Part shown: positions 16,033 through 42,977 of the stretch, in pieces
How positions within the stretch are numbered: the stretch's first letter is position 1
Layout: the number at the start of each line of letters is the position of its first letter
Assembly (NCBI GenBank): GCA_963813715.1
Contig: CAWFAK010000017.1
Span: forward strand, 110,230-174,229
Length of the DNA stretch: 64,000 nt
Direction of reading: 5' to 3'
Source: an uncultured Planctomycetaceae bacterium
GTDB taxonomy: Bacteria > Planctomycetota > Planctomycetia > Planctomycetales > Planctomycetaceae
The notes under the pieces: model-generated
Databases searched by the model: none
Told to the model about the DNA's origin: nothing
What the model saw: the letters and a program-made list of their open reading frames with translations, nothing else
Made by a program: the position numbers and the translations under genes

Positions 16033-17076
16033 CTAAGAGTGCGCTTTCACGGGAACCGCCGGTGGAGCGAATGTTTTCAGCGTAATCATGCCCAGGTCGA
16101 CCGGCCGCCGCTCGAGTTTTTCGCTGATCGGCGGCACCTCAAATGCGTAACCCATAACGAATAGCTTGCCGCCAATAAGAGGTACGCTTAGGTAGTATTT
16201 ACCGGCCGGCACATCGTCGATGGAGAATTCTCCCCGATCGTCAACGGTGGCCAGAAAACTCAGCTCCCCCAATCCGCCTCTTCGATCGCGGTGAATATCA
16301 ATGTTAGCGTCACCCCACCGCGGCTCGGGCCCGCCTTCGGGCGCCTTCAGTCGTCCGATGACCGTGCGCCCTGCGTTGCCGAAGTCGATGCGGGTGGTCT
16401 TTCCCGCAAAAAAGTGGGCAGTCATCCGGCAGGTGGACGTCATTTCGCGGGGCTCGCTCGGTTTGCGATTGCGAATACTCCTAATGTAGCTCAGGCCGGG
16501 TAACACGTGCTCGAAGGCGTAGCGGCCGTGGGCGTCGGTTTTTTGTTGATTCGATGTTGTCAGGTGGGCGACACCTTCGCCGATCCACAGGTTGGTGTGC
16601 CCTTCGATTCCCAGTTGCAGATTTGCACACGGTTGACGCGCGACCATGTACGTCCCTTCGGCTCTCGCCCACGGCGACAGTGAGATCGTTTTCGGAGGAG
16701 ACGTTCGCGTGCCCTTCACTTGGGCCCAGCCCGAAGGATGCACGGCGACCAACCAAAACTCGTCCGCGTCGGTCGTGAAATGCCAGTGACCGCTCTGGTC
16801 GGGCTTTGTCGGCAGCGGCAGGGGTGACTGGACGAGTTCGCCGTTAAAGACCGCGGCCGATTCACCGAGTTCGAGCAGAACGACCTTGGCATCGGTCACT
16901 GCCTTCCCGTCGCTGCCGACAACGGCAACCGTAACGTCCAACGATTTTCCGGACCCGGAAAAGACTCCGGTCGCATGCAATGCCTCAAAGCATAAGAGCA
17001 CTCCGGCGACGACGATCACGATGCGGAATTTTGTCCTGCCCAACGATCGCCGAATTGAAATGTCCCGGTCGCTCAT
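16033..17076 (-). CDS. array paralog 8 (short form, 347 aa): signal-anchored carboxypeptidase-regulatory-like repeat protein
   Basis: N-terminal anchor FRIVIVVAGVLLCF. Aligns by eye with the C-terminal third of the long paralogs (SPWARAEGTYMVARQP, DAHGRYAFEHVLPG, GEFSIDDVPAGKYYLSV). Ends with the shared motif EKLERRPVDLGMITLK. Confidence 0.7.
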   Translation of the reverse strand: MSDRDISIRRSLGRTKFRIVIVVAGVLLCFEALHATGVFSGSGKSLDVTVAVVGSDGKAVTDAKVVLLELGESAAVFNGELVQSPLPLPTKPDQSGHWHFTTDADEFWLVAVHPSGWAQVKGTRTSPPKTISLSPWARAEGTYMVARQPCANLQLGIEGHTNLWIGEGVAHLTTSNQQKTDAHGRYAFEHVLPGLSYIRSIRNRKPSEPREMTSTCRMTAHFFAGKTTRIDFGNAGRTVIGRLKAPEGGPEPRWGDANIDIHRDRRGGLGELSFLATVDDRGEFSIDDVPAGKYYLSVPLIGGKLFVMGYAFEVPPISEKLERRPVDLGMITLKTFAPPAVPVKAHS

Positions 17077-17085
17077 GCGTCTCTT

Positions 17086-19545
17086 CTAACGCCGCACTTT
17101 CGCAGGCCCGGCGAACGGTTCGGGTGCCTTCAGCGTGAGCACCCCGAGGTCGACCGGGCGCTGCGACAGCTTTGCGTTGACCCGCGGCACGGTGAAATGG
17201 TGTGACTGCAGCAGCAGGGGCGGCGGGCCGGGAACAAAGGCGTGCAGGAGGTAGTCGCCGGGTGGGATCTCATCGAGTGAGAAGTTGCCGTCGCTGTCGG
17301 GCTTGGCGGAAAATGTCGGGACGCTTTCGATATCAAACCAATCAATATCCGGCATGACCATAATCGAGGCCGAGCTCATCGAAACGTCGGATTTCGATTC
17401 GGGCGGCCGCCGTAACTGACCGATTACCGGCCGCCCCGCGCCGCCGACGTCGACGTGCATGATCTGGCCGGCGGGACAGTCGACCGGCACGGTGGCCGTG
17501 AAGGTGGTTTCGGACTTGCCCTTGCCGGTGACGCGTTTGACGATGATCCAATGCAGTCCGGAAATGGCACGATCGAACGCGAATCGGCCGCTTGAATCCG
17601 TCGTCTGTGTATCTTGATCGCGGGGAGGAGCATTGCGCGGCGGCGCGTTCGAGGCGGACGAGGGGCTGGTGAGCAAAACTTCGACGTCGGACTGCGGTCG
17701 CCGGGCGACTTGGACCGTCCCTTCGACCCGCGCCCACGGCGTCAACTTGAGTTGCCGGGGATTGCCGCTCGGGAGCCCGCTTTGGTCGAGGTATCCCGAA
17801 GGATGCGTGATCACCAGCCGAAAGTTGTTGTTCTTCGCGGCAATCTGCACCCGGCCGGTTTGATCCGCGTCATGAACGTCGCGCTGGTTTTCCAACTCGC
17901 CCCGGTTGAGAGAGACGACTTCGTTCGGGCCCAAAACCGTCACTTTTGCTCCCGCGGCAGGCCGGCCGGCGGGCGTGAGCACGGTCGCCGCGAAGTCTTT
18001 GGCTTTGAGCAACTCGAAATCGATCGTGGTGTTCCCCGCGTCCGATTTAATCTCGCGCGAGACGCTGTGCCAATATCCGTCGGCATCGATTCGCACTAGG
18101 TATGCGAGCTGCAGGTAGGTCTGACGAATCTGATAGGTGCCATCCGCGGCGGCCGGCTTGGTCTCGTTCGTAACGACTTGCCGCCCACTCGTGCGATATC
18201 CGCTCGTGAAGCGAAAGTTGTGGATCGGCTGTTTGGTATCGGCGTCGACGACTCGTCCCGTGATCACCAGCTCCGAGGGAACGCGAAACACATACTCGGC
18301 CTGCCGGGCTGTAACCCTCTGCCAGCCGAGCGTCATCCCGTTGGAGCGATGAATGCTGAGCAGCATTCTTTCCCCGGGCAGGTCGTGCCATTCCCAGGCT
18401 CCGTCCAAGTCCGTCTTCAGGGGGGCCTGATCGACTTCAAAGGCATCGAAGCCGAACTCGCCCCAAAGTGAGACTTGCGCTTTCGGCACAGGGCGCCCGG
18501 CCTCGTCGAGCACGCGCAGGCGGAGCGTCTTGCCCGGTTTGAGCTGAAAGTCAACCGACGCCTCGAGCGTGCCGAGCTCGATCTCTCGGAGCTGTGCGGC
18601 GCACCCCTTGGCCGCGGCCACGAGCTTGAGTTGCGGTGTGCAGCCTTCGAGCCGGTAGCTGCCGTTTTTGTCCGAGAAGGCGGTCCGCGTATCTTCGCCA
18701 ACCCGCGCGCGGACGAGCGCTTTGGCGATCGGCTTGCCAGCCTCGTCGGTGACCTTGCCCATCACCGTGACCCCTCCTTCGAGTACGATTTTTCCAGTCG
18801 GTTCGTGTCCCGGCTCGATCGCAAATTTCTCGCGACTCAAACTCGCCTTGTGCGCCGGGTATTTGGGCTCGCTGACCTCCGCGCTGACGAGCTGCATCGA
18901 CTCCGGGACGCTCTCGAACTTCCAGACGCCTTTGCTGTTGGTCCACAGACGATCGGAATAGCCCAGCTGGCCCGTCCCCTCGAAACGAATCTGCAGCACG
19001 ACCCGCGCGTTCGGCACGGGCTGGCCTTTGCCGTCGACCACGATGCCACCGATCGTCCAGGCCTTCTGCAGCTTGATCGTCAGCGGCTTGTCATAGCGAA
19101 AGATGTAAGTCGAGGAGTAGAAGGCGTAGCCGGGTTTGTGGACGCGGAAGTTGAGTGACTCCAAGTGCGACGGCTGCTCGACAATGATGCGTCCGTCCGC
19201 GTCGGACTGCAGGTTGACTCCGTAGCGCGGCTTATTGAGCAACCTCCCTGCGCGGAGTCGAACTTTTTCCAACGGCGGCTGCGTCGCCAAATTGACCTTC
19301 GCCCCCGCAATCGGCTGACCTTCCGGCCCGACGATCTGCAGCTCGAACACGGGGGGCGCGGACGCGGTCGTGTTGGCAGCCTTGTCAGTTGCCGCCGCGG
19401 ATTTTGTCTGGCCGTCGTCGGCTGGCACCTGCGCCAGCAGCAGGGCGATGAGAATCGCCGCGCAAATCAAGGATGACACCGGCCGAGAAGCCGGTCGCCT
19501 CGACTTCTTCGACTCTCGCCGGAGCTCGGTCTGCTCGTAGTCCAT
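17086..19545 (-). CDS. array paralog 7 (long form, 819 aa, intact; subfamily C)
   Basis: Anchor LICAAILIALLLAQVPADDGQ and repeated G-x-V-x-D-x-x-G-x-P units (GIVVDGKGQPVPNARV, GKVTDEAGKPIAKALV, GRVVDADTKQPI). C-terminus AKLSQRPVDLGVLTLK. SD-like GGGAG lies 5 nt before the ATG. Confidence 0.75.
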   Translation of the reverse strand: MDYEQTELRRESKKSRRPASRPVSSLICAAILIALLLAQVPADDGQTKSAAATDKAANTTASAPPVFELQIVGPEGQPIAGAKVNLATQPPLEKVRLRAGRLLNKPRYGVNLQSDADGRIIVEQPSHLESLNFRVHKPGYAFYSSTYIFRYDKPLTIKLQKAWTIGGIVVDGKGQPVPNARVVLQIRFEGTGQLGYSDRLWTNSKGVWKFESVPESMQLVSAEVSEPKYPAHKASLSREKFAIEPGHEPTGKIVLEGGVTVMGKVTDEAGKPIAKALVRARVGEDTRTAFSDKNGSYRLEGCTPQLKLVAAAKGCAAQLREIELGTLEASVDFQLKPGKTLRLRVLDEAGRPVPKAQVSLWGEFGFDAFEVDQAPLKTDLDGAWEWHDLPGERMLLSIHRSNGMTLGWQRVTARQAEYVFRVPSELVITGRVVDADTKQPIHNFRFTSGYRTSGRQVVTNETKPAAADGTYQIRQTYLQLAYLVRIDADGYWHSVSREIKSDAGNTTIDFELLKAKDFAATVLTPAGRPAAGAKVTVLGPNEVVSLNRGELENQRDVHDADQTGRVQIAAKNNNFRLVITHPSGYLDQSGLPSGNPRQLKLTPWARVEGTVQVARRPQSDVEVLLTSPSSASNAPPRNAPPRDQDTQTTDSSGRFAFDRAISGLHWIIVKRVTGKGKSETTFTATVPVDCPAGQIMHVDVGGAGRPVIGQLRRPPESKSDVSMSSASIMVMPDIDWFDIESVPTFSAKPDSDGNFSLDEIPPGDYLLHAFVPGPPPLLLQSHHFTVPRVNAKLSQRPVDLGVLTLKAPEPFAGPAKVRR

Positions 19546-19609
19546 AGCAGCTCCCTTTACGGAGCATTCACTCGGGACTCAGTCTCAGGAGTCCTGAGTC
19601 CTGGGTTCA

Positions 19610-22070
19610 CTACTTACCGGGTTCTAAGGTCAACACTCCGACGTCGACCGGCCGCGCCGACAACTTCTCGTTCACGGCCATTACGGTAAAACGGTGTGGA
19701 TTGAATTGAGATCGAACAGGCTTGAGAAACTGAAGGCTGAGCGAATACTCGCCCGGCGGGACGTCGTCGATGCAGAAGTTGCCTTCGGGATCGACCGTTG
19801 CTTGGAAGTCCCGACCATTTCCTGTGGCTTGGACCAGAACGAAGTTCCAGCCAATCGTCGGCTTTTCACCGTTTGCCGCTCGCAGCTGTCCGGTCACGGG
19901 CCGCCCCGAGACTCCAAGATCGATGTGCGTGGTCTGGCCCGCGATGAACTTGACCGGCACCATCGTGCTCGACGTCGTCTCGCTCGTTCCCGTGTCCACC
20001 ATGATCAGGATGTACCGGCCGATCGATCCCTGGCCTGGAATCACGTGCTCGAAGGCGAAATGTCCGTTGGCGTCGGTTGTCTGGTTGTAGTCGAGGTAGA
20101 TCGATGCGCCGTTTTGAGCGCGGAGTTGGGCGTTGGCCTGGTGATCGATCGAGATCTTGGCATTGGCCTGCGGTTTTCGCGCGACTCGATAGCTCCCTTC
20201 AACTCGGGCCCAGCGTGTCAGGGGGAGCGTCTTGGGGACCGACTTCAGTGAACACCACTGCTGGGCGTAACCCGACGGATGAATGGCCACCAGCCAGAAC
20301 TCCGACGTTTGCGGGCCGAAGTGAACGCGGCCGGCCTCGTCAGCGTCCTGGCTGGGGCAGTTCACCTGGCCCGGGGCAAAGTCGCCATTTTCGAGCATGA
20401 CGTGCGCGCCGGCGTTGAGGAGCGCCACTTTCGCCCGCGAGGCGGGCGCTCCAGCGGCCGTCACCACGGTCGTGACGATGTCGTGGCCTTTTTCCAGCGC
20501 CAGATCGATCGTGACATTCCCCTCGTCGCTTTTGATCTGGCGTGAGACGCCCGGCAAATGGCCGTCCGCTTCGACCCGCACCTGGTAGGCGTGCTGCTCG
20601 CGGTTCTCGCGAAATTGGTAGTGGCCGTCGATCGCGTTAAAAGCGTGGTCGGTGTTCCAAAAGACATTTGCATTCGACCATTGGATGCCCGGAATGACGC
20701 GAAACGACTTGATCGGCTGTTTCGTTTCGGCGTCGATCACTTTTCCCGAAATCACGAGAGCCGGCGGCACGCGGAACACCTGTTCTTTCTCGCCAGGGAC
20801 AAGCGTCCGATTGCCGAGTTGCATGCCATCCGGGCGGCAGATGTCGGCTTGGATGGGGTCTACGGGCGCGCTCCTTCCATTCCCACAGTCCTTGCTCGTC
20901 CGTGAGCCGCGGCACGTTCTCGAACTCGAAGTACTGGATGCGACCATGCCATTGTTGAAAAAAAATCGTCGCCTTGGGGATCGGCTTGCCGTGTTCGTCG
21001 AGAACGCGGACGCGTAGCGTTGCGGCGGGCTGCATTTGAAAGTCGACGGGCGTATTGCGCGGACCGAGTTGCACCTCTTCTAGCGCTCGAGCGTGCCCCT
21101 TCGCCGCCACGACAATTCGGACCGGTCCTGGCTCGCAACCCTCCAGCCGATACACACCCGTCGCATCGGTGACGGCCGAGTGCTCGTTGTTGCCGTATTT
21201 GGTCCAGACGTTGGCTTTGGCGATCGGTCTCCCGATTTCGTCGGTGACCCGACCCGTGATGATCAGGCCGCGATTCAGAAGAATTTTGGCGGTAGGCCGG
21301 TGTCCCCGCTCGACCTGGAAAAGTGCGCGCGACAGGGTCAGCCGCTGCGCCATGAAGGTGGGATCGTAGATTTCGACGGGTACGGCATTGAGAGAGCTGG
21401 GGACGCTCTCGAAGGTCCACTCCCCTTTGTTGTTGGTCCGCACTCGGTCGCCGGTCCCCATTTGCCTCGAATCGCCGGGGCGTTTGGTGAATTCGATCCG
21501 GAGTCCCACGCGCGCGTTGGGAATGGGTTTGCCGTCGCTGTCGACGACAACGCCCCCCACCGTCCACGCGGGTTCCAGCTTGATCGTGAGCGAGGCGGGG
21601 ATCGGCTCGGAATTCGAGGTGAGAGACCATCCAGCCCAGTACGGGGCGTAGCCAGGAATCGTGACGTAGAGATCGAAACGTTTCGGTTCGGCCGGCCGCT
21701 CGAAGGAAAGCCGGCCATCGGCATCCGCCGTGGCAGTCGCGGCGTAGCGCATTCGGCGGAGGAATTTTCCGCGGTGGATTTGTTTGGCCTGGATAACCGG
21801 CGTCGTCCGCAGTTCGATTTTGGCCTCGGGCACCGACTTCCCGTCGGGCCCGACGATCCGCAAGTCGAACACGGGCGTCGCCGATTCGGGCGCGCTGGCA
21901 GGCTTGGATTTGACCCCTGCCGCATTTGGTTTGCCATCGTCGGCTTGCACCGCAGGCAGTGCCAGGACTGTGAGGAGTATCGCGGCGCAGGCGACGACAC
22001 TACCTCTCGGATTGACCGCTTGCCGTGACGCAGCCGGTCGCGGCTGATGCTTGTTGAATTTATGGTTCAT
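19610..22070 (-). CDS. array paralog 6 (long form, subfamily B), frameshift at about 20868 as assembled
   Basis: ORFs 20637-22100 and 19610-20947 join as ...EQGLWEWKE / APVDPIQADICRPDGMQL. Anchor VVACAAILLTVLALPAVQADDGKP. GGAG lies 6 nt before the ATG at 22070. C-terminus EKLSARPVDVGVLTLE. Confidence 0.7.
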
Positions 22071-22093
22071 GGACAACTCCAATCCGCGCGCTC

Positions 22094-23154
22094 TTACCAT
22101 CGGCCGCCGACATTGAGTTGGAGCACGCCTAAGTCCACCGGCCTTTGCGACAGCTTTTCGTTAATCGTGGGCACCTCGAACGGATGATTCAGGATGTATT
22201 GTCGGCCTTTGTAGAAAAACACACTCAGAACGTGCTTGCCGGTGGGAACGTCATCAACGCAGAAGTTGCCGGCCGGATCTAAGGTCGCCGAAAAGTTGAG
22301 GTCTAGGGCGCCGGCCAGGGGGTGATCGGACGAGACTGCGACGAACGCGAATTTCCACGGAACTTCGTTCGTCGCACCCGTGGGACGCCGAAGCTGACCG
22401 ATGACCGGCCGGCCTGTGGTGCCGAGGTCGACCTGCCTCGTTTGACCGGCCGTAAGACTGATTGGCACAAAACCTCCAGAAGCGATTTCACTCGCGCCGT
22501 CGGTCGCCGAAAACGCGAGCGTGTGGCCAATCCGCAGCGCGCCTGGGACGACGCGTTCGAACACGAATCGCCCGTTCGTGTCGGTCCTCTGCTCTGATCG
22601 GAAGAAGGCTCGCGGCGGGGCGTTGAACGCGCCGAACACGGAGTTGGGATAAATCTCGATTTTGACATGGGGTCGCGGCTTCGCGCGACTCGGTATGTTC
22701 CTTCAACCCGCGCCCATGAGGTGAGTCGAATCGGCTGGGGAATGGAGACGGGGGAACATTTGACCTCTGCGAAGCCAGAGGAGTGCGTGACCACGAGAAG
22801 GCTGTTGCCGGTCACTAGCGGAAAATCAAAGCGGCCAGCGGCATCCGCCTGGCGTCGCTCGATCCCCGTCAATTCGAAAATGTCGTCGCCATTGAGAATG
22901 TTGAGTTGCGCTCCTTGGATGGCCAGCGCAACTTTGGCCCGACCAGCCGGGTTGCCGTCCGGGGTGAGTATTGTCGTGCCGCTCGCGGCGCTCTTGGAAG
23001 GACCGTTCTTCGGCGAGTTGGCAGGCGGATCTGCGTCGGCGTGCGGAGACGCCAGCGCGACGACACCGAAGAGTAACGCTGCCCTCGCGCTGCGCTGCGT
23101 CGCCGCGATCTGTCGCCACATGCCGGTAGGCAACCTTTTCTCCGAGAAGCTCAT
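22094..23154 (-). CDS. array paralog 5 (short form, about 350 aa), frameshift at about 22683 as assembled
   Basis: ORFs 22303-23154 and 22094-22639 join as ...VEGTYRVAR / KPRPHVKIEIYPNSVFGAFN. Signal-like ALLFGVVALASPHADA. C-terminus EKLSQRPVDLGVLQLN. The start overlaps the upstream stop (TAATG). Confidence 0.7.
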
Positions 23155-25766
23155 TATCGAGCGGCTCTCACTCGCGCGGCTCGGGCTGCTTCAGGGCTCG
23201 ACATCGTGAGCACACCCAGATCGACGGGCCGCTGCCACAACTTCCCCTTGGCTTTCGGCACGACGAAACGGTGCTGCTGCATTTGAAGATTCTGCCCCTG
23301 AGCGTTGGGGATGTAGGCGTTCAACCAGTAATTGCCTGGCGGAATGTCGTCGATGGCAAAGTTTCCGTCACGGTCGGTCGTCGCATTGAACTGCAGCTCC
23401 GACTCGCCCCACATCTGGCCACCCTCCTGGCTGACCCAGATCTGAGCCGAACCCAATTGGTCGGCCTTAGCCTCCGGCGGCTTGCGCAATTGCCCGATGA
23501 CCGGACGTCCCTCGGCTCCCAAGTTGACGTGCGTGGTCTCGCCGGGGGGACAGGTCGCGGTCATCGTCATGCTCGACGTCATCTGGCCGTCGCCCGAGCC
23601 GTTCGGCCGCGCCCAACTGATCTGCTGTCGGCCCGGCACGACCCGATCGAAGACGAACCGGCCCTGCGCATCGGTTGCTCGCAGCGATTGCGCCATGATT
23701 TGCGGAGAATTCTGGCCGAAAAAATATTGGGCTCTAGAACCAGAGATCCAAGTGTTTGCCTTGGGCTGTCGAGCGACTTGAAACGTTCCCTCGATCCGCG
23801 CCCACGCCTTGAGCTTGACGATTCGCGGATTGGAACTGGGCATGCCCGGTAGCTCGGCGTAGCCAGTGGGGTGCGTGACCACGATCCAGCAGTTCGTGTT
23901 CTTCGCCTCCGCACGAAGCTTGCCGTCCTTGTCGGTTTCGTGCACGGCGGTCAGCCGTCGGCGCGGCTGGCGAAATTGACGGATCAGTCCGACGATAAGT
24001 CCCCCCATGTTACCGTTGCCGCCGCCCTGCTCCTGCAGTTCACCCCCAGAGACCACCACTTGCTCCCCGGGGCCGGGGATCGCGACTTTCGCTCGCGCGG
24101 CCGGGGCTCCGTCGGGCGTCAAGAACCGTTACCGCGACGGTTTTCCCTTTGAGCAGCTCGAAATCGATCGTGACCTTCGCCTCGTCACTTTTGATCTCGC
24201 GAGATACGGCCGGCATGTATCCGTCCGCTTCAACGCGCACCAGATTCGCGCCCGTATCGTCCGTCTTTTTTATTTCGTAGGTGCTTCCGGTTGACGGCTT
24301 GCCGTTCTGATCCTCCCAGACGACCTGCTGCCCCATCCAGACGTATCCGGACGTCAGCCGAAAACCTTTGATCGGCTGATGCGTTTCGGCGTCGACCACC
24401 TTGCCCGAGATGACGAGTGCCTTGGGGACGCGGAACACGTACTCTTCCTTGCGCGGCGAGAGGGCTCGATTGCTCAGGGTCATCCCGTTGGGACGACCGA
24501 TGTTGGCCAGAACTTCTTCCGGGGGCGCCTCCTTCCATTCCCAGAGACCGTCGACGTCCGTCTGCCGCGGGGCATTGTCGACCTCGAAGAAATCGAACCC
24601 TGGCCGCCACTGCTGGAAATAGACTGTGGCTTTCGGAACCGGGTGCCCCTCTTCGTCGAGGACCCGCACGCGGATCGTGTTGCCCGGTTTCAGCCGAAAG
24701 TCAATTGGGCCCAGCCCCGGGCCGATTTCGATTTCTTGCAAGGCGGGGGCGCCGCCCCTTCGCCGATGCCACGATCCGCGCTGCCAGGCCCGCAGCCCTC
24801 CAGGCGGTAGACCCCCTTTTTGTCGGTGAAAGCGCTGCGGGTGTCGTTGTTAGCCCTCGTCCGCACGAGCGCTTTGGCGATTGGCTTCCCGCCGTCATCG
24901 GTAACCGTGCCGGTGACGGAGAAGCCGCCCTTGAGGGTGATTTTTGCCGTCGGATCATGCCCGGGATTAACCGCGAATTCCGCGCGGTCGAGCGTCGGGT
25001 TTTCCGGCACGAATTTCGGGTCGTTGATCTGGGCGGTGACGGCGTTCATCGATTCGGGCACGCTCTCGAACTTCCAGATGCCCTTGCCGTTGGACCAGAT
25101 GCGGTCCGAGAAGGTGATTTGTCCGCCGGTCATTTGAAGCTGAAGGATAATCCGCACGTTCGGGATGGGTTTTCCGTCGTTGTCGACGATGATGCCGCCG
25201 ATCGTCCAGGCCCGCTGCAATCGGGCCGTCCGTGGAGCGAGCACGGCGTCGGCCTTGTTCTGGAAATTGACCCAGTTCAGGTAGTAGCCATAACCGGGCT
25301 TACGAATTTGATAGTTGAGATAGTCCAAATGAGCCGGCCGCTCGAAGGCCACGCGCCCGTCCGCATCCGACTTCACCACCAGGCTGTTGCGCAATTTCGT
25401 GACTAACGTCCCCGCGCGGAGCCGGACGTCCTTGGGCCGCGGGTTTATGAACAGACTGACCCTGGCATCCGGAACCGGCTTGTCATCGGGCCCAACGATC
25501 CGCAGCTCGAACGCCGGCGCTCGAGGCGCGGGCGCGGTGGTTGCCTGCGGAGCGGGTGCCTGGGGAGTGGGAGCCGGCGCGATCGTCTTGTGGTCGTCGG
25601 CTTTGGCTTTGCTCGCGGCGCCTGGGCCGTCATCGCCCGCGGCCAGGACGGGCATCGGCCGTCCGTCCGACCCAAGCAGCGCGCCGAGCGCGAGCAGGAG
25701 CGTGACGACTCTCCAGCACTTCGATCGCACTCGCCCGCCCGGAGTCGTGATCGGTCGATGAGTCAT
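23154..25766 (-). CDS. array paralog 4 (long form, subfamily C), three frameshifts (about 24123, 24745, 24765) as assembled
   Basis: ORFs 24690-25766, 24040-24741 and 23154-24122 read through: ...YRLEGCGPGS / ARIVASAKG / APALQEIEIGPG... and ...KTVAVTVL / TPDGAPAARAKV. C-terminus GKLWQRPVDLGVLTM. Confidence 0.7.
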
Positions 25767-25778
25767 GGCATCCTCTGC

Positions 25779-28252
25779 TTACGGGTTGCGAGCGGGCACG
25801 GCCTTGGGCTCGTTCAGGTTGAGCACGCCCAGGTCGATCGGGCGTGTGCAAGCTTCTCATCAATCTTTGGGACTTCCACGCGGCGGTTGAACCGGATTCC
25901 ATTGTCGTTCGTAAAACGCACGCTCAGCGAGTAAAAGCCCGCCGGCACGTCGTCGATGCAGAAGTTCCCGTGAGGATCCGCCGTGGCGGCGAAGTGCAGG
26001 CCGTTGCCATCGACCTCGATGAGCGCGAAACTCCAGTGGACTTCTTCCTTCGACTCCGCCGGCGTCTGCAGTTGCCCGACCACCGGCCGACCGGAGGTTC
26101 CCAGGTCGACGTGCGTCGTGGTGCCCGCTGTCAGCTTGATCGGGACCATCGCGGACGAAGTCATCGCGTTCGACCCGGTGAAGGCCATGAGTTGAAGATT
26201 CCGGCCGATCAGACCATCACCCGGCGCCACGTGCTCGAACAGGAACCGGCCGCTCGCGGCGGTGGTTTGCCCATAGTTGAAGAGAATGCTGGGTGCATCG
26301 CCTGCCATCACATTGTGCGACCACTGGTTAATCCAGATTGGAACGTTGGCCTGCAGCTTGCGAGCGACGCGAAACGTCCCTTCGACGCGGGCCCACGCGG
26401 TCAAGCGAATCTCCTTCGGCAGGTGCGCAGCCTGGCACTTCAGCACGGCGAAACCGGCCGGATGCGTGACGACGAGCCAGAAATCCTTGACTTGCGGTGT
26501 GAAGTGAAAGCGCCCCTGCGGATCGGCCATCTCGCGGAGGGAATAAGTTTGGTTCTCGTCGATGTGGCCGTTGGTGACCATGATCTGCGCACCGTGGACG
26601 CCCAGGGCGAGTTTGGCACCGGCGGCCGGTGCGCCGTCGGGACTGTCGACCGTCCCGACGAAGTCTTCCCCGCGCTTCATGTCGAAATCGACGGTGACGT
26701 TCCCTGAGTCAGTCGGAATGTCGCGGGAATCGGCGGGGAAGTAGCCGTCCGCTTCGATCCGCACGCCGAACAATCCCTGCGCATACGTTTCTCGGAGGCG
26801 GTATTGGCCGTCGGCCGCAGTAAAGCCCTCGAACGTGTTCCGAGAGGTCCGGTCTCCTGGGACGACGTGAAACGTTTTGAGTGGTTGCTTCGTTTTCGCG
26901 TCGACAACTTTGCCTGAGATCACGAGCGCCGGAGGCACACGAAATGTGTACTCCTCCTTCCCATCGCCCAACGGCTGATAGCTCAGCTGCATGCCGCCGG
27001 GGCGACAGATATCGGCGGCAAACGTGTCGACCGGCGCTTCGTGCCATTCCCACACGCCGTCTTTGTTCGCGTATTGAGTCACCGAGTCGAACTCGAAGTA
27101 TTGAATCGGTCCCCGCCATCTTTGGAAGAAGATGCGTGCGCGGGGGAGCGGATGCCCCTTCTCGTCCAGCACGCGCACGCGGACGGTCCGGCCGGGCTGC
27201 AGGATAAAGTCGACGTTGGTGCCGCGGGCGATCGCTACATGTTTCATTTCGAGTGCGCGGCCTTTGGCGGAGACGACGATGCGGGCCTCGCCCGGCTCCG
27301 CTCCGGTGACCCGGTATGTGCCGTCGGCACTCGTGACGTCTTTGCGGACGTTGTTGCCGAACTTCGTCCTTACGACGGCGCCCGCGATCGGCTTGCCGGT
27401 CTCGTCGGTCACTCTGCCCGTGACGATCAGCCCCGCTTGCAGGGTCACTCGGGCGGCTGGCTTGTCACCCCGCTTGATGCCGAACTTGGTGCGCGGCAAA
27501 TTCGTCCGCAGGGTCATGAAGTCGTGCTTGCTGATTTCGACCTGGACCGCCTGCACCGAATCGGGGGCGCAGTCGAAGCTCCAGCGGCCGTTGGAATCGG
27601 TGCGGAGGTGAGTGCCAGTCACGAGCTGTCGCGTTTTGCCCGGACCTTTCGCGTATTCAATGACGGGCCAAATCTCCGCCCCGACGATCGGTTGCCCGTC
27701 GCCATCGACGACAACGCTGCCGACCGTCCACGCGCTCTGGAGCTTGATGGTCAACGCCGCCGGAATTGGCTCGGAGTTGACATCCGGAACCCAACCGGTC
27801 CAGTAAGGCGCGTACCCGGGCATTTCCAACAGGAAGTCCAAGTACTTCAATCCGGCCGGCCGAGTGAACACCAGCCGCCCATCCGCATCGGCCGTGATGC
27901 CCACTCCATAAGTCGCTCGCCGCTGGTATTTGCCGACGCGCACCTGGTCCCCTTGAAGCCGGGGCGTGCTCCGTACGTCGACCTTCGCGTGAGGAACGGG
28001 CTTCCCATCCGGCCCGACGACGTGCACCTCGAAGGTCTTTGAATCAGCAGCGGGCGCGGTGTTTTGGGCCGCGGGCGGCGCCGCCGTTGAAGCCGTCGAC
28101 TTATTCTCAGGCTTGCCATCGTCGGCGTGTAGGAGTGACATCCCCAACAACGCCAAAAGGAGGCTCGCGCAAACTGAGCGATAAGGTCGTTCAATTAACC
28201 CGGAGTTCGACCGCTTCGACACTCGTTGGCGCCCAATTTTGTTGTCGTCCAT
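25779..28252 (-). CDS. array paralog 3 (long form, subfamily B), frameshift at about 25842 just before the C-terminal motif
   Basis: The 812-aa ORF ends ...PKIDEKLAHARSTWACST. Shifting one nt gives KLAH(R)PIDLGVLNLNEPKAVPARNP with TAA at 25779-25781, restoring the family motif. Confidence 0.75.
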
Positions 28253-28264
28253 GGCACCCTCACT

Positions 28265-30718
28265 TTAACGCGAGTCGCCGGTTTTCAGTGTCAGCACCCC
28301 CAGGTCGACCGGACGTTGCGACAGCCTTTTGTCGATCTGGGGGACACTGAAGCGGTGCTTGAGTGGGATTCCCTTGAAGGTCTGTACCTGAACGCTCAAT
28401 TCGTAGTCGCCGGACGGAACCGCATCGATGGAAAAATTCCCTTCTGCGTCCAGCGCGGCGACGAAACTCGGCTTCAATTCGGCGAGGCGAGGATCCCGGC
28501 TATCAACTCTCAGGAGAACGCGGTTCCACGGAAATGTCTGCTTCGTCTCAGGTGGCCAGCGGAGCTGGCCGATGACGGGCCGTCCGGAACCTCCCAGGTC
28601 AAAATGCGTGGTTTTGCCAGGCTCGAGTCGGACGGGCATCGAGCCCGTTGAGGCCATTCCGTGGGTCCCGTTCTCGTCGAACAGCTCAATCTGAGGTGCG
28701 ATCGTTCCCTGCCCCGGCAGCAATCGGTCGAAGACGTAGCGCCCGTCGGCATCGGTTGTCTCAGAGAATGACCAGATAATCCGCGGCCTTTTGGGATCGA
28801 ACCGACCCCTCGGGCGTGACAGTGATAACGAGGCCGCCGGTTGCGGTTTTCCCACTACCAGGTACGTTCCCTCCAACCGGGCCCAGGGCGTCAGCTGAAT
28901 GTTGCCGGGATCCGACTGGGGAGAACACTTCGCCTCCGCATAACCGGACGAGTGTGTGATCACGAGCCAATAGTCGGCCTTTTCGCGCGGGAAACGAAAG
29001 TGGCCGGCTTCGTCGGTGATCCTCCGTGCCACTGTTTGGGAATCGCCCTGGTCGCCGTTCTCGATTCTGAATATCGCGCCGGCGGTCAAGAGCGCCATTT
29101 TCGCATTGCGGGCCGGCTTGCCGTCGGCCGTCAGAACGGTGCCGACGATGTCTTCGCCCTTCGTGAGTGCAAAATCGGCTGTCGCATCTCCGTGGTTCTG
29201 CTTGATTGGGTCGGATTCGGCAGGCAAGTAGCCGCCGGCCTCGACGCGCACGCGGAAGGCCGGTTGCCCGTTTGTGTGCCGAAGCCAATAGGTGCCACCG
29301 GTTGCCTCAAAGCCGTCGGCCCAGAGCCATCGCGACGCAGACATGCTTCCTTGGGGCACGACACGAAACCGCTCAATCGGTCGCTTCGTTTGGGCGTCGA
29401 CGACTTTGCCTGAAACGCGCAGGTCGGGCTGTTGTCGCAACACGAACTCCTGTTCGCGGGCTCCCAAATTGTTCCCTCCATTGAGCCAGCTGCCATCGGA
29501 AAGCCTGACCCCCACGACGCAACCGGACGCCGGCGCATCGTTCCATTCCCAAGCGCCGTCGTGATCCGTGAGTTGATTCGTGTCGCTCGTGTCGTAATCG
29601 GCGAAAGGGTACACAAATACCTTCGCACTCGGGATGGGCTTTCCCTGCACGTCGAGCACGCGGAGCCGGAACTTTCCGCCCCTCGTCAACTGAAAATCGA
29701 CGGGCGCGTTTTCGGCCGCCCTGGAAACCGGCTGGGAGGCAGGTGCGAACCCCTTCGCCCGCGCCGTAAACATCACCGGCTCGGGGGGGCAACCAACCAT
29801 CCGGTAAAAACCGTCGGCATCCGTGACGGCCTTAAGGAAAGTATTTCGATAGAAGGTTAGAACGACGGCCCCGACGATGGGCTCGCCCGATTTATTGGTG
29901 ACGCGGCCGGTCACGGTCAGCCCGGGGCCGAGGATGATCTTGCCAGCGGACTTCTTGTTCGTCGCGATGCCGAACTCCGCCGCACTTGAGCCTCGCGCCT
30001 GCGGCATGAAAAGGGGATGGGCGATTTGAACGGTAACTGGATCACTCGAAAGCGGGACGCAGTCAAAGTGCCATTTCCCATCGGCATCGCTCTTTAGCCG
30101 CTCGTCCCGGAGCCATTGCAAGGCTTCCGGGCAGCCGTAGGCGAAATCGACGGGCGGCAAGATCGTCGCGCCGGCGATGGGCTTCCCGTTGACATCGACG
30201 AACGTGCCTCCCATCGACCAACCGGGCTCGAGCTTCACCGTCAACTTCGCTTGGATTGGCTCGGAGCGCAAAGAGGGCGACCAGGATGACCAATAGCGCG
30301 CGTATCCCGGAGCTTCGATATAGAGGGCCAGTCGCTTCCACTCGACCTGCGGCTTCAAAGCAATTCGGCCCTCGCCGTCGGCTTGGAGCGTCGCTCGAGA
30401 GCTCGAACTCCGCACGAGCTTGCCGCGTTGCAGTTGCCCGATCTGAACAAGCGGTTCGCTGAAGACCTCGATCTTGACGTCGGCGACCGGCTTACCGTCA
30501 GGCCCGACGACGTGCAAATCAAAGGGGGCGGTTGCCGACGGGGGCGCAGCAGCGGACTTTGAGTTTGCGGCACCGGGCTGGCCGTCGTCGCCAACCAATA
30601 ATCCGCGCGTCATGAACGTGATGAGCACTCCCAAGCAAACTGCGGCGCGATCCGGATGGTGCGGCCGCGCGCGGCATCGTGTCGTCACATTTCGGCCGCC
30701 GATCTGGTCGTTGCCCAT
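28265..30718 (-). CDS. array paralog 2 (long form, 817 aa, intact; subfamily A)
   Basis: Anchor AAVCLGVLITFMTRGLLVGDDGQPG with the same repeat architecture. C-terminus KRLSQRPVDLGVLTLK. Confidence 0.75.
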   Translation of the reverse strand: MGNDQIGGRNVTTRCRARPHHPDRAAVCLGVLITFMTRGLLVGDDGQPGAANSKSAAAPPSATAPFDLHVVGPDGKPVADVKIEVFSEPLVQIGQLQRGKLVRSSSSRATLQADGEGRIALKPQVEWKRLALYIEAPGYARYWSSWSPSLRSEPIQAKLTVKLEPGWSMGGTFVDVNGKPIAGATILPPVDFAYGCPEALQWLRDERLKSDADGKWHFDCVPLSSDPVTVQIAHPLFMPQARGSSAAEFGIATNKKSAGKIILGPGLTVTGRVTNKSGEPIVGAVVLTFYRNTFLKAVTDADGFYRMVGCPPEPVMFTARAKGFAPASQPVSRAAENAPVDFQLTRGGKFRLRVLDVQGKPIPSAKVFVYPFADYDTSDTNQLTDHDGAWEWNDAPASGCVVGVRLSDGSWLNGGNNLGAREQEFVLRQQPDLRVSGKVVDAQTKRPIERFRVVPQGSMSASRWLWADGFEATGGTYWLRHTNGQPAFRVRVEAGGYLPAESDPIKQNHGDATADFALTKGEDIVGTVLTADGKPARNAKMALLTAGAIFRIENGDQGDSQTVARRITDEAGHFRFPREKADYWLVITHSSGYAEAKCSPQSDPGNIQLTPWARLEGTYLVVGKPQPAASLSLSRPRGRFDPKRPRIIWSFSETTDADGRYVFDRLLPGQGTIAPQIELFDENGTHGMASTGSMPVRLEPGKTTHFDLGGSGRPVIGQLRWPPETKQTFPWNRVLLRVDSRDPRLAELKPSFVAALDAEGNFSIDAVPSGDYELSVQVQTFKGIPLKHRFSVPQIDKRLSQRPVDLGVLTLKTGDSR

Positions 30719-30730
30719 CGGATGCTTCCC

Positions 30731-33136
30731 TTACGGTGCTTTCAATGTCAGCACGCCCAAATCGACGGGTCTTTGCCATAGTTTTTTGTCGATCGCGGGC
30801 ACGTTGAAGTGGTGCTCCAGCTGGGGCGCTGCGATCCAGGCGACCCGAACCGTCAGGACATACTTGCCGGCCGGAACGCCGTCGATGCAGAAGTTGCCGT
30901 CAGGGGCCAACGTGGCACCGAAACTGGGACTCGATTCCCTGAGTTGCGGGTTGTGGGCCTGGACAAGGATGACAGCGTGGCTCCACGGACCTTTCTCCTT
31001 CGAATCGGGAGCTCGCCGCAACTGGCCGATCACCGGCCGGCCGGAGGCCCCCAGGTCGAAGTGCACCGTCTCTCCGGGCTGAAACTGAAGGGGCTGCTCG
31101 CCGTACGATGCCATCCCCAACTCCAGGACCTCCTCCATGAGCAACAACGGCCGCCCGATGGTTCCCGCTCCCGGCATGAGCCGATCGAACTCGTACCGTC
31201 CTCGGGAGTCGGTTGTCTGGGAGAACGACGAGAAGATGGACGGCGCGTTCTTGCCGCCCAAGTCATTGCTGTGGCGCATGACCGAAAGCGAAATATACGG
31301 CTGCGGCTTTCCTGCGACGTAGTAGGTCCCCTCGAGCCTCGACCAGGCAGTCAGGCGAATGGGCTTGGGGTCCGAGTCAGGCGAACATTCGACCTTCGCG
31401 TAGCCGCCTCGATGCGTGATCACAAGCCAATACTTCGCTTTCTCGCGCGGGAAACGAAAGCGACCCGCGTCGTCGGTCAGGCGTTGCTGCGCACCGAATG
31501 GGTGATCGGGAAGTTCGCCATTGGTGATGGTGATATGGGATCCGACATGTCCCATCGCCACTTTTGCGTGGGCGGCAGGACGGCCGTCGGCGGTCAGAAA
31601 CAATCCCGGCGATGTCTTCGGCGGGTGTCAGCGCGAAATCGACTGTCACGTTGCCCTCGTCCTTCTTGATCCGGCCCGACTCAGCCGGCAGATAGCCGTC
31701 GGCTTCGATCCGGATTTGATTGACAGCCGTCTGGTTCTTGGCACGAAACCAGTAGCTGCCGCCACTCGCGAGGAAGTTCTCGTTCCAGACCCACGAGGAC
31801 GCTCCCGGGACGACTCGAAATTTCTTGATCGGCTGCTTGGTCCGGGCGTCGATCACTCTGCCCGAGAAGGTGACGGCGGGTGGCGCCGAAAAAGGATCTC
31901 CCTTGGGCCGGCGACAAGCGGCTGACTGTTGAGCCCTCTGCCATCGGGAAGATTGATCCACGCGCTGAATTGGTCCGCAGGCGCCTGGCTCCATGCCCAC
32001 GCTCCCTGGCTGTCGGTGTATTCGCTGGGCCGTTCCAACTCGTAATCGGCGAATGGCCAGAGAAGGAGCCGCGCCTTTGGAATCGGCTTCCCGTGCTCGT
32101 CAAGCAGCCGGAGGCGGACCGTCCCTCCGCGTTTCATCTGAAAGTCGACGGGCTTCATCCCGGATTGAATCCAAACCGGACGCCAGGCCGGCGCGAGTCC
32201 CTTGGCCGCAGCCAGCACCGTCGTCCCCAACGGCTTACAGCCAACCAGGCGGTAAGCGCCCTCCGCATCCGTGACGGTTTTGCGCTTGCAAAGCTGCAAG
32301 TTGGCTTGGACCAGTGCGCCGGCGACGGGCTCGCCCTCCGCATCGGTGACCTTGCCCACGACTGTCAGGCCAGGGTCCAGGACAATCTTGGCGGAAGGCG
32401 TTTGTCCCCGCCTGACGTCAAAATCCGCGCGATTGAACGTAACGGACTTCGGCATGAAATTCGGATGGTCGACCTCGACTGTGACGGGATCCCGCCAAAT
32501 CGGCACGCAATCAAAGTGCCATTTTCCTGCGGCGTCGCTCTGCGGCCGCTTGTCGAGGCAGCGTTCCGTGGCCTCCTGATCGAATGGCAAATCGACTGGG
32601 GGCAGAATCCTCGCGCCGGCGATCGGTTTCCCCTGATCATCGACGATCGTTCCGCCGACGGACCAGCCGGGTTCGAGTTTGGCGATGTATTCCGCGGGGA
32701 TCGGCTCGGAGCGAACTTGGGGGCGCCACGACGCACAATATCGGGCGTAACCCGGAGCTTCGATAAAAAGATCGAGACGGTTCCACTGGGCCGGCCGCAC
32801 AAGAACGATTCGGCCTTCGCCATCAGACTCGAGCGTCTCCCCGTAGCTTGATTCGCTCACGAATTTGCCGCGCCGGACCTCAGCCGCGTGAATGGCCGGC
32901 TCGCTCAGGAAGTCGACTTGAACGCGCGGAATCGCTTTCCCGTCGGAAGCGACGATGCGGAGGTCGAACGTCGAGGCGACCTGCGTGGGCGCGACCGCGG
33001 CTCGGGAGGTCGGCGGCTCAGCGGCCACCTCGCCCGTCGCGGCTTGCAAGACGGCCCCGGCCACGACAGCGCAGCGCATCGCCGGCGATAACAAGAAACA
33101 TGCTGCCGTGTTTGTGCACCAAGGCGCGAAGTGCAT
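30731..33136 (-). CDS. array paralog 1 (long form, subfamily A), frameshifts at about 31599 and 31900 as assembled
   Basis: ORFs 31853-33145, part of 31377-32000 and 30731-31603 join as ...SQPLVAGP / KGDPFSAPPAVTFSGRVIDA... and ...AEDIAGIV / LTADGRPAAHAKV. C-terminus KKLWQRPVDLGVLTLK. Start uncertain (33145 TTG, 33136 ATG or 33079 ATG). Confidence 0.65.
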
Positions 33137-33290: not shown

Positions 33291-33525
33291 TTAACGCTCC
33301 GCCGTCGTGATCCACGTGCGCGGCAACGCGCCGCCAATGCCCGTCGCGGCGATCTTTTTGCTCTTCTGAGCGTCGTCGGCGGTTTGTCGCGGGGCCGCGG
33401 GGGCGACTGCCGCCGCCTTCTTCGTGGAGATGCGCGGCCCGTCGTCGGCCTGCAGGCTCGACAAGCAGCTCGCAACGGCGACAAGGACGAGGACGCGCGT
33501 GCGTCCGGCGATCCGCGTCCATCAT
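33291..33525 (-). pseudogene. N-terminal fragment of an array paralog (signal anchor only)
   Basis: After ATGATG (33520-33525) a shifted frame reads ...RIAGRTRVLVLVAVASCLSSLQADDGPRISTKKAAAVAPAAP... then TAA at 33291. This matches the anchor plus ADDG motif of the long paralogs, but only about 75 codons are present. Confidence 0.5.
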
Positions 33526-33555
33526 GCGAACTCCGAGACTTGGGTCGAGCGGCCA

Positions 33556-33661
33556 CCGTCACGATACCCAAATCGAGCGGGCGCTGCGACAAGTTTTCGT
33601 CGATCGCCGGCCGGCTGAATTGGCAGCGTCCGGGAACCCGATGCGATCGAAGAGCCCTCGC
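33556..33661 (-). pseudogene. C-terminal fragment of an array paralog
   Basis: Reads ...CQFSRPAIDENLSQRPLDLGIVTV, i.e. the family C-terminal motif, preceded by an in-frame TGA (33662-33664) with no upstream body. Confidence 0.5.
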
Positions 33662-33701: not shown

Positions 33702-33917
33702 CTAGCGCTGGCCGTATGGCGGCTGCTGGCCTGGGTGCGCGTCCGGGTCGATGCCCATGCCGATTTTGGCCATCCGCTCGCGGTGATTGATGATCGATTT
33801 CACGATCACGGTGAGCGAGCCGAACACGATCGCCGAAATCGGAATCAAGAGCGCAAACACGCCCGCATCGATGACGATGGGCGAATCGGCAATCAGCGAG
33901 AGGCAGGTAGAGGACAT
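33702..33917 (-). CDS. small single-pass membrane protein, tandem paralog 1 of 3 (71 aa)
   Basis: TM helix (GVFALLIPISAIVFGSLTVIV) followed by KSIINHRERMAKIGMGIDPD and a Pro-rich tail. Confidence 0.6.
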   Translation of the reverse strand: MSSTCLSLIADSPIVIDAGVFALLIPISAIVFGSLTVIVKSIINHRERMAKIGMGIDPDAHPGQQPPYGQR

Positions 33918-33959
33918 CGCGGTCTCGCGAACGGGGTCGCCGTTATCCAGAGGCGAAGA

Positions 33960-34193
33960 TCAATACCCGGCGGGCGCTTGCGGATGATTGGGATCGTACT
34001 TGTGGGGGTCGTAGTCCGGATCGATGCCCATGCCGATCTTGGCCATCCGCTCCCGGTGCTTGATGACCGATTTCACAATCATGACGACCGATCCGCAAAC
34101 GATCGCCACGACGGGGATGCACAGGGCGATCAGGCCCGCATCCGGCGGAGGCCCATTGGAAGTTGCCAGGGCGGACATCAGGTGGAATGCCAT
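33960..34193 (-). CDS. small single-pass membrane protein, tandem paralog 2 of 3 (77 aa)
   Basis: TM helix (LIALCIPVVAIVCGSVVMIV) followed by KSVIKHRERMAKIGMGIDPDYDP. GAGGAG lies 5 nt before the ATG. Confidence 0.7.
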   Translation of the reverse strand: MAFHLMSALATSNGPPPDAGLIALCIPVVAIVCGSVVMIVKSVIKHRERMAKIGMGIDPDYDPHKYDPNHPQAPAGY

Positions 34194-34202
34194 GTTTGCT
34201 CC

Positions 34203-34454
34203 TCAGCCACCCACTTGCGAAGTCGGGTCGTGTGGGCGTCGGTACGGCCCGGCACTCGCGTGTGGGTTATTCGGGTCGACGTCGGCTGGGTCGTAGTCGG
34301 GGTCGATGCCCATGCCGATCTTGGCCATCCGCTCGCGATGCTTGATGACCGACTTCACGATCACGATCACCATCACGATTGCCGCGAGCGGGATCAGCAC
34401 CCAGATCCCCTCATCCGATGCCAGGACCGGGACCGCCAACGAATCGAAAGACAT
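34203..34454 (-). CDS. small single-pass membrane protein, tandem paralog 3 of 3 (83 aa)
   Basis: TM helix (IWVLIPLAAIVMVIVIV) followed by KSVIKHRERMAKIGMGIDPDYDP. GAGGAA lies 7 nt before the ATG at 34452-34454. The longer ORF up to 34715 has no support. Confidence 0.7.
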   Translation of the reverse strand: MSFDSLAVPVLASDEGIWVLIPLAAIVMVIVIVKSVIKHRERMAKIGMGIDPDYDPADVDPNNPHASAGPYRRPHDPTSQVGG

Positions 34455-35059
34455 AACTGCGTTCCTCAACCCGTTACCACGACCCATTCCACGCGGCCGC
34501 ACGGGACATTCGACCGAGCCTTCCCTTTGGACGTCTTCCGGCGATTCTAAACGGCTGTTCGCTCGAACGCACGAAATCTTGGGGCAATTCGGGGAAAAGC
34601 GGCCTGGAATCGCCCCCGATTCAGTTTCACTGGATTGCGTCGTCGCGGCCATTGTGAAGCTTTCTTGAATTCTCGGGCATCGATGACTGCCGTCCTGACT
34701 TCTAACCGCCGACACGCGATGATTTGGTCCAGATGTCCAGCGCCGCGCTTAGGATTTGGTTCCAGATGGCCAGATCTTCGGCTGGTTCCGGAACCGACAG
34801 CAAGCTGTCGGCTGGGAAAGGTGGACGCCGCCCCAGAGTCCACGATCGCTCGGTGCCGCTCGGCTCGCGCGCCAGGAGCCGGAAGCCGATGTGTCCTTCC
34901 GGAAATCGACGTTTTCGCTGACGGAGCGTGCTTTGGAAAAATCGCGGGGCCGGCTCACTGGCTCTTTGGGGCCGGTCGCGGGAAACTACTGGCCAGCGGC
35001 CCGAGTTTGCATCACCCCCGGACCAGCCCGTCCGGCAGTCACCTCGCGAGGATTCAGTC

Positions 35060-39765: not shown

Positions 39766-39791
39766 CGCCGCGCCCCGTCGAGGAGTTCTTG

Positions 39792-42377: not shown

Positions 42378-42429
42378 GAGCGAGTCTGTCGCCAGCGGAC
42401 CCGTGACGCACCTTTAAGAAGGACACATC

Positions 42430-42957: not shown

Positions 42958-42977
42958 CGGCTGCGTCAGGAGGACAC

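Follow-up and report, generated by a model that had tools for sequence, protein, structure and literature searches.

A tandem array of beta-sandwich proteins in an uncultured Planctomycetaceae bacterium shares its eight-domain ectodomain with BlaR1/M56 and ECF sigma-factor fusion proteins

Planctomycetes have an unusual and poorly understood cell envelope, together with very large sets of BlaR1-like and extracytoplasmic function (ECF) sigma-factor signalling proteins. In the prototype of the BlaR1/M56 transducers, BlaR1 of S. aureus, signals enter through the extracytoplasmic C-terminal domain (PMC9834060). A described protein of comparable modular build is NOMO, a 'beads on a string' rod in the lumen of the endoplasmic reticulum (ER) that sets the spacing between ER membranes and that, in NOMO1, shows at least eight discernible segments by electron microscopy over about 24-27 nm (PMC8327139). 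Here we analyse a stretch of 64,000 nucleotides from an uncultured Planctomycetaceae bacterium (GenBank assembly GCA_963813715.1, contig CAWFAK010000017.1; hereafter the window), in which eight paralogous genes, g1 to g8s, lie in tandem on the minus strand between positions 16033 and 33145. The long members of this array are strings of eight beta-sandwich domains (D1-D8) behind an N-terminal leader, and the short ones keep the last three. With a probability of roughly one in two, we read the products as exported, non-enzymatic binding or spacer rods of the envelope, made from a cassette that they share with M56 and sigma-factor transducers.

The relationship to transducers came from database searches with g7, an intact long form. 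These returned close orthologs at 83-98% identity and many stand-alone proteins of 780-870 residues, together with proteins of about 1200 residues carrying an N-terminal PF05569 domain (BlaR1 peptidase M56) and proteins of 1000-1150 residues carrying ECF sigma-70 domains, with variants that have an extra thioredoxin or AhpC-TSA domain. In BLASTP alignments, residues 17-811 of g7 are collinear with the stretch 376-1204 of P0030, an M56 protein, at 38% identity, so that the likeness takes in the whole ectodomain, from the last hydrophobic segment and the linker through D1-D8 to the C-terminal 'PVDLGVL' strand; residues 67-806 are likewise collinear over D1-D8 with the sigma-fused protein P0043, at 36% identity. 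Free modules resemble fused ones as closely as the array paralogs resemble one another. P0030 matches the BlaR1-family NCBIfam model, and at its locus, the one M56 locus examined, a PF03965 (BlaI-type) gene precedes it and overlaps its start, while P0043 has sigma-70 region 2/4 domains joined to the ectodomain via one transmembrane segment.

In contrast to these relatives, the array proteins are devoid of the M56 membrane/HExxH protease domain and have no BlaI neighbour among the flanking open reading frames (ORFs) scanned, and Pfam detected in them neither PF05569 nor the sigma-70 regions 2 and 4 (PF04542, PF08281/PF04545). Nor did Pfam or NCBIfam recognise in them a penicillin-binding (class D beta-lactamase-like) sensor domain; the planctomycetal ectodomain is unrelated to this domain of BlaR1, and the planctomycetal M56 proteins are uncharacterised. 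Since the M56 and sigma fusions of other Planctomycetota carry the complete ectodomain as their extracytoplasmic part, the array proteins are tied to regulation through their homologs. An earlier reading of the same DNA, made from the sequence alone (the original prediction), had recognised no regulatory domain in them, which holds for their own domain content; they are not, however, an isolated family, given that the ectodomain is shared with both kinds of fusion.

Among other copies, those at loci L006, L008, L009 and L011 have an HExxH-containing M56 region in the same reading frame, and Pirellulales and Fuerstiella genomes have just one copy of the module, fused to an M56 region in which the HExxH motif is present. 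A profile of D6-D8 retrieved 1099 cluster representatives at E <= 1e-30; the best 150 comprise 51 short stand-alone proteins (<=460 residues), 40 stand-alone proteins of 461-960 residues, 42 M56 fusions, 2 sigma fusions and 15 proteins longer than 960 residues with no M56 or sigma match. PF05569 is present in 20 of 23 giant homologs and AhpC-TSA or Redoxin domains in 7 of the 23. In the giant BlaR1/M56 proteins P0207, P0208, P0211 and P0225, all metagenomic homologs, two or three complete eight-domain modules follow one another in a single chain, some with AhpC-TSA/thioredoxin in addition; P0207 (3014 residues) has three complete modules behind M56, with low-complexity linkers between them. 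Judged from these alignments, D1-D8 is a discrete evolutionary cassette that ends in the '...RPVDLGVL...' strand and recurs in all six long forms, in P0030 and P0043 and, in triplicate, in P0207, and the array is the unfused, multi-gene counterpart of the single M56-anchored chains of other planctomycetes. It is a detached and multiplied BlaR1-type ectodomain and not a new category. The domain type, and many planctomycetal proteins labelled 'carboxypeptidase regulatory-like domain-containing', are already in databases; the eight-domain cassette, its three deployments (free, M56-fused and sigma-fused, single or concatenated) and the dynamic tandem array appear to be undescribed.

The same similarity could suggest that the free modules are decoy or co-receptor ectodomains, which bind the ligand of M56/BlaI or sigma-fused transducers encoded elsewhere and so tune them. 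Free and fused modules are indeed as alike as the paralogs, and bootstrapped neighbour-joining places the modules fused to M56 and to sigma with the g3 clade (97% support). However, no transducer gene lies in or beside the array at any locus examined, and eight copies are many for titration, so we give this possibility only slight credence.

Regarding the proteins themselves, the original prediction of eight minus-strand paralogs, six long and two short, was borne out by ORF listing and translation, tblastn and frameshift-aware reconstruction, which gave six long forms of 784-857 residues (about 785-860) and two short forms of 344-347 residues (Table 1). With g2 (817 residues), g3 (812 residues as called), g7 (819 residues) and g8s (347 residues) as tblastn queries against the window, every long query matched every long copy collinearly over its full length (E 1e-107 to 1e-170), and the short forms mapped onto residues ~514-816 of the long form, which correspond to D6-D8. 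Pairwise amino acid identity is 35-51%, far above chance, and the three closest pairs are g1/g2 (51%), g3/g6 (51%) and g4/g7 (50%); the similarity is, as had been supposed, full-length and collinear and not merely domain-level. The assignment of the repeat to PF13620-type beta-sandwiches was also confirmed: the intact long forms match the Pfam model CarboxypepD_reg at E 1e-42 to 1e-46 (143.6-154.1 bits over 4-7 stretches, the gathering score being 32.3 bits), frameshifted pieces match it at 41-110 bits, and g8s reaches 30.0 bits, just under the cut-off. The motifs GKVTDEAGKPIAKALV, GRVVDADTKQPI and GIVVDGKGQPVPNARV, by which the repeat had been illustrated, are all located in g7. Other Pfam matches are to overlapping beta-sandwich families, including weak matches to the NOMO and EMC7 sandwiches. 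In agreement with the same prediction, no catalytic domain was found by Pfam and no transport or regulatory domain was recognised by Pfam, NCBIfam or PADLOC, and the PADLOC anti-phage defence models gave no match for g7, g8s, g2 or for sm1 and sm3, two of the small membrane-protein genes upstream of the array.

Table 1. Features of the array locus (window positions) and domains of g7 (residues of the AlphaFold2 model).
Feature	Description	Position	Strand	Details
sm3	single-pass membrane protein, 83 residues	34203..34454	-	ORF; post-transmembrane motif KHRERMAKIGMGIDPD
sm2	sm3 paralog, 77 residues	33960..34193	-	ORF; dN/dS 0.26 against L020
sm1	sm3 paralog, 71 residues	33702..33917	-	ORF; dN/dS 0.22 against L020
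Tail relic	C-terminal-tail relic of a lost array member	33540..33600	-	'ENLSQRPLDLGIVTV', compare family tail 'KLSQRPVDLGVLTLK'; three-frame reading
Leader relic	leader-only relic, frameshifted	33293..33525	-	'MMDADRR...' then 'AVASCLSSLQADDGP...'
g1	long form, ~785 residues	30731..33076 (alternative start 33145)	-	two 1-nucleotide indels, ~31888 and ~31597
g2	long form, 817 residues, intact	28265..30718	-	ORF, Pfam; 51% identical to g1
g3	long form, ~825 residues (812 as called)	25779..28252	-	1-nucleotide deletion ~25850 breaks the C-terminal tail
g4	long form, ~857-867 residues	23154..25766	-	indels ~24782/24753 and ~24127
g5s	short form, ~342-344 residues, leader + D6-D8	22094..23154	-	one frameshift ~22668
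g6	long form, ~829 residues	19610..22100	-	1-nucleotide insertion ~20870; 51% identical to g3
g7	long form, 819 residues, intact	17086..19545	-	50% identical to g4; AlphaFold model
g8s	short form, 347 residues, intact	16033..17076	-	leader + three-domain head D6-D8; AlphaFold model
g7 D1	AlphaFold domain	residues 66-158
g7 D2	AlphaFold domain	residues 161-255
g7 D3	AlphaFold domain	residues 259-335
g7 D4	AlphaFold domain	residues 339-421
g7 D5	AlphaFold domain	residues 426-512
g7 D6	AlphaFold domain	residues 518-600
g7 D7	AlphaFold domain	residues 605-700
g7 D8	AlphaFold domain	residues 705-806

The AlphaFold2 model of g7, built with 46 homologs, is all-beta and resolves eight beta-sandwich domains, with a predicted local distance difference test (pLDDT) score of 82 and a predicted template-modelling (pTM) score of 0.53. 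The model of g8s is a compact three-domain unit (pLDDT 84, pTM 0.77), which indicates that D6-D8 would keep a fixed mutual arrangement. The sequence 'RPVDLGVLTLK', conserved at the C-terminus, forms the final strand of D8 and is not a sorting tag. Across homologs D3-D5 are the best conserved domains (mean identity 0.45-0.47), D1-D2 and D6-D8 being less conserved (0.35-0.39; 0.35-0.38 for D6-D8), and D8 has the most insertions.

All members begin with a leader in which a net-positive stretch, reduced in g1 to 'MR' alone, precedes an uncharged stretch of 12-21 residues that usually ends in a small-x-small pattern before 'DDG' (VPA/DDG, VQA/DDG or LHA/DDG), followed by a low-complexity linker of 20-45 residues rich in Ala, Pro, Ser and Thr. 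A cleavable Sec signal peptide would have a positive n-region, an h-region of 7-15 residues and small residues at positions -3 and -1. With their short hydrophobic stretches and the pattern before 'DDG', the leaders look more like cleavable signals than like signal anchors, although in the M56 fusions the homologous segment is a membrane helix. The proteins had been called signal-anchored: the basic and hydrophobic leader is present in all of them, but the anchor is not established, and the A-x-A/DDG pattern would fit a cleavable Sec signal better.

When solved structures were searched by sequence and with Foldseek, just generic immunoglobulin (Ig)-like strings were returned: NOMO2, BaTIE, pilins, alpha-2-macroglobulins and MG-domain proteins, and SlaB, with TM-scores <=0.22. 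The best PDB sequence match is NOMO2 in the BOS complex (PDB 9c7v, E 5.8e-9), over just the stretch 656-791 of the profile. NOMO and the array proteins are both membrane-compartment proteins that consist only of consecutive transthyretin/Ig-like sandwiches, both have BaTIE as the closest protein in fold searches (for NOMO, PMC8327139), and the rod lengths to be expected are similar, ~27 nm in NOMO1; NOMO differs, however, in being eukaryotic and in having a C-terminal membrane anchor where the array proteins have an N-terminal leader, and the likeness is at the domain level only. TIE proteins and sortase pilins, which are CnaB/Ig-like strings, gave the top Foldseek matches (BaTIE 6fwv, BcpA 3kpt and PitA 7w6b), but at the low TM-scores just given, and the array proteins lack LPXTG and Cys-x-Gln motifs and come from a diderm host. 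A single transthyretin-like sandwich, PA1324 of P. aeruginosa (PDB 1xpn/3qec, a putative carbohydrate-binding protein according to its deposition), matches D7 marginally (E 4e-4 to 5e-4) and no other domain. Membership in a characterised family was considered and rejected, because Pfam, NCBIfam, PADLOC, PDB sequence and Foldseek searches gave only domain-level beta-sandwich matches; this answers the earlier call for profile and structure searches, in which no characterised family of known role came up. The literature searches found no paper describing this protein family or a system with this array layout, of which the original prediction had known none either, and nothing relevant came up on BlaR1 or anti-sigma links.

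These fold matches raise the question of whether the proteins are surface structural components, such as an S-layer-like coat, fibres (for instance of crateriform structures) or adhesins, with the paralogs as antigenic or adhesive variants. The best matches (BaTIE, Gram-positive pilins and SlaB) are indeed surface Ig-like strings, and P0030 shows a weak, partial, domain-level match to the anammox Kustd1514-type S-layer model NF052345 (22.8 bits against a cut-off of 1400), a model that neither g7 nor g8s matches. Nevertheless, TM-scores this low make the fold likeness generic, and no array member carries LPXTG, a Cys-x-Gln thioester, PEP-CTERM, a type IX secretion system (T9SS) signal or another sorting signal. 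In addition, relatives tether the module to cytoplasmic-membrane proteins (M56 and sigma fusions), which places it in the periplasm there. Taking these points together with the population data given below, we consider a surface coat or adhesin unlikely, if still worth keeping in mind.

Some features could instead be taken to suggest periplasmic metal- or solute-binding or redox accessory proteins. DUF4198 (PF10670, NikK-like) is matched by g2 with 53.9 bits and by g3 with 36.6 bits against a 34-bit cut-off, the His in 'THPSGY' is nearly invariant, and redox domains occur in the giant relatives mentioned above. However, the best DUF4198 stretches cover only about positions 141-206 of the 209 in the profile, which belong to the shared core of the sandwich, the domains have no conserved metal-site motif in common, and the redox domains are additions in the relatives that are absent from the array proteins, which makes this explanation very improbable.

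Inside the array the genes are separated by gaps of -7 to +64 nucleotides (about 12 between g3 and g4 when g3 ends at 25779), and no terminator-like site was found on the minus strand. The array is probably co-transcribed as one unit, for which these sequence features are weak evidence. The Rfam scan for RNA elements gave no match, and promoter-like sites are not commoner than in shuffled sequence.

Seven small indels interrupt the array genes as assembled (two each in g1 and g4, one each in g3, g5s and g6), and these, within 17 kb and together with the relics listed in Table 1, might be thought to indicate a decaying array of pseudogenised remnants of former M56 sensors. Housekeeping and other genes of the window are broken in the same manner: the transketolase gene (34928-~37000, plus strand) is split over at least two frames, an AcrB-type transporter gene (3667-7166, minus strand) is broken into two ORFs and a sigma-54 activator gene (2115-3446, minus strand) is missing the start of its receiver domain, which is indicative of a noisy long-read assembly; the nearest genomes are those of uncultured Planctomycetaceae binned from long-read metagenomes. 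Aligned with L024, a 96%-identical relative, the housekeeping flank shows gap openings at a density (47 in 13.7 kb) similar to that of the array (26 in 6.3 kb). Orthologs of g1, g3, g4, g5s, g7, g8s and transketolase are unbroken across L024 and L020: that of g1 has 785 residues in L024 (96% amino acid identity) and 753 in L020, that of g3 has 815 in L024, that of g4 has 867 in L024 and 859 in L020, and that of g5s, a gene absent from L020, has 342 in L024. Because housekeeping genes are equally broken and the orthologs of relatives are intact, the seven frameshifts are most likely assembly or sequencing errors, and pseudogenisation was rejected on these grounds.

Selection speaks the same way. 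The ratio of nonsynonymous to synonymous substitution rates (dN/dS) is 0.31 for g7 and 0.29 for g8s against L020, and about 0.3 for the C-terminal part of g4, compared with 0.11 for the adjacent aldehyde dehydrogenase gene; the array genes are constrained by purifying selection yet evolve fairly fast. A decaying array is, with all this, extremely improbable.

Comparison of related loci places the array at a conserved site. In every related Planctomycetaceae locus examined it lies just upstream of the aldehyde dehydrogenase gene, past which there is a gene for nitronate monooxygenase, and in L020, L021 and L024 it lies downstream of transketolase. The number of copies at this site varies: two long copies in L003 and L019, three in L005, three long and two short in L020, at least five long and one short in L002, and six long and two short, plus relics, in the window. 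In the tree, g3, g4, g6 and g7 of the window each pair 1:1 with an ortholog in L002 (93% identity for g6), and the duplications that gave g1/g2 and g4/g7 predate the separation from L005. Since the paralogs share at most 68% nucleotide identity and show no conversion tracts, the duplications are old; recent amplification or gene conversion is ruled out by the same identities and by the finding of a single shared exact 20-mer. A duplication of the block g3-g4-g5s to give g6-g7-g8s is partly supported, in that g3 pairs with g6 and g4 with g7 at 50-51%, whereas g5s and g8s do not pair.

At the strain level, window positions 21710-30738 were compared with 13717-20255 of L024. The two genomes are 96% identical overall, but g2 is absent from L024, the g3 leader is different there (replaced), and the g4 allele is only 79-88% identical in nucleotides, against 97-100% for g1, g3, g5s and g6. 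The divergent allele has a dN/dS of 0.34-0.38 with an elevated dS of 0.23-0.44, which excludes positive selection and leads us to regard it as an older allele acquired through recombination. Strain-level variation in the presence of g2, a divergent g4 allele and a relatively high dN/dS of about 0.3 are typical of exposed proteins and lend something to the surface-protein alternative, from which the lack of positive selection on g4 takes something away. Elsewhere, g5s is absent from L002 and L020, and the g4 ortholog of L020 bears a g3-like leader, which suggests a deletion via recombination between neighbouring copies. Old tandem duplications at one site gave rise to the array, which is still turning over by deletion, allele replacement and leader swapping. 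In-situ amplification, as first proposed, is therefore correct as regards the site, which holds 2, 3, 5, at least 6 or 8 copies among relatives, but 'amplified' gives way to ancient duplications with ongoing birth and death.

The limits of the locus also changed. The eight genes stand, but g1 probably starts at 33076, the start called in two relatives, and not at 33136, relics of further copies lie at 33293-33600, and the genes sm1 to sm3 (33702-34454) probably form part of the same conserved locus. The leader-only relic is an intact ORF of 76 residues in L024, and L020 has a complete short form of 368 residues where the window has relics, between sm1 and g1. The products of sm1 to sm3 consist of one hydrophobic helix, a nearly invariant HRERMAKIGMGIDPD motif, which by the positive-inside rule would be cytoplasmic, and an acidic proline-rich tail. 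All three genes are found in the same order in L020, at 87-94% identity (92-94% for sm3) and a dN/dS of 0.22-0.26 (0.22 for sm3), and also in L024, and the distant L021 has a single copy directly before its array, so they probably belong to the array locus. The family comprises 86 clusters, all small, unannotated and without a Pfam match, and a search found no similarity between sm proteins and the M56- or sigma-fused relatives. In L022 (884-6060), HRERMAKIGMGIDPD proteins are located directly upstream of a MoxR AAA/DUF58/DUF4129/DUF4350 set and not of an array, a layout that hints that they may have partners besides beta-sandwich proteins.

Among the other genes of the window, a run for central carbon metabolism lies beside the locus on the plus strand (34928-44618), in which transketolase is followed by an XFP phosphoketolase (37405-39765), a glycogen/carbohydrate phosphorylase (40041-42377) and a phosphoglucomutase (42894-44618). 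Two Ser/Thr protein kinases have unusual partner domains, one (680-2050, minus strand) with FHA N-terminal to the kinase and the other (56556-57863, plus strand) as a kinase-AHSA1/START-like fusion. Candidate ORFs of 336-665 residues without a Pfam match, real or shadow in this GC-rich sequence, lie at 44684-46681 (plus) and at 47341-49376, 51110-52405 and 61831-63069 (all minus).

Following our reading of the array proteins as envelope binding or spacer rods, the long forms, after export, would be rods of ~25-30 nm, a length taken by analogy with NOMO1, and would lie free in the periplasm or, where the leader is not cleaved, stay tethered by it to the cytoplasmic membrane. D3-D5 would form a conserved shaft and D6-D8 a more variable, loop-rich head that contacts a partner, probably a polymer of the envelope or the environment or another envelope protein. 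Because the module occupies the place of the signal-sensing domain in BlaR1 (PMC9834060), the most likely role of the head is to recognise a ligand from the envelope or the environment, which would be of the same kind that the M56- and sigma-fused relatives use as signal input. The array would then provide a range of diverged heads for binding or spacing, some on a shaft and some lacking it, none of which would have a signalling output itself, and the three small membrane proteins encoded upstream may be their partners.

Several points weigh against this picture. Its functional part derives from homology of architecture only, and in the fused relatives, themselves uncharacterised, the module could be a passive spacer instead of a sensor. 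Among the larger window ORFs scanned with Pfam there is no M56, BlaI (PF03965) or ECF-sigma gene. The N- and C-terminal domains are just modestly more variable than the shaft, and in L005 and L022 the sm genes are only loosely linked, being nearby but apart from the array.

A bolder extension, in which we place little confidence, would assign D1-D8, as building block, to an envelope-spanning apparatus specific to planctomycetes. The M56- and sigma-anchored copies would report the state of the outer envelope across the unusually wide periplasm, and the free members, possibly organised by the three HRERMAKIGMGIDPD proteins, would form rods that set or bridge the spacing between cytoplasmic membrane and outer layers, or fibres that capture polymers. 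If true, such an apparatus would be a first molecular handle on the architecture of the planctomycetal envelope. For the binding or spacer rods that we favour, finding the partner of the head would name the input for a whole class of planctomycetal transducers and would explain why up to eight free copies are kept in some lineages.

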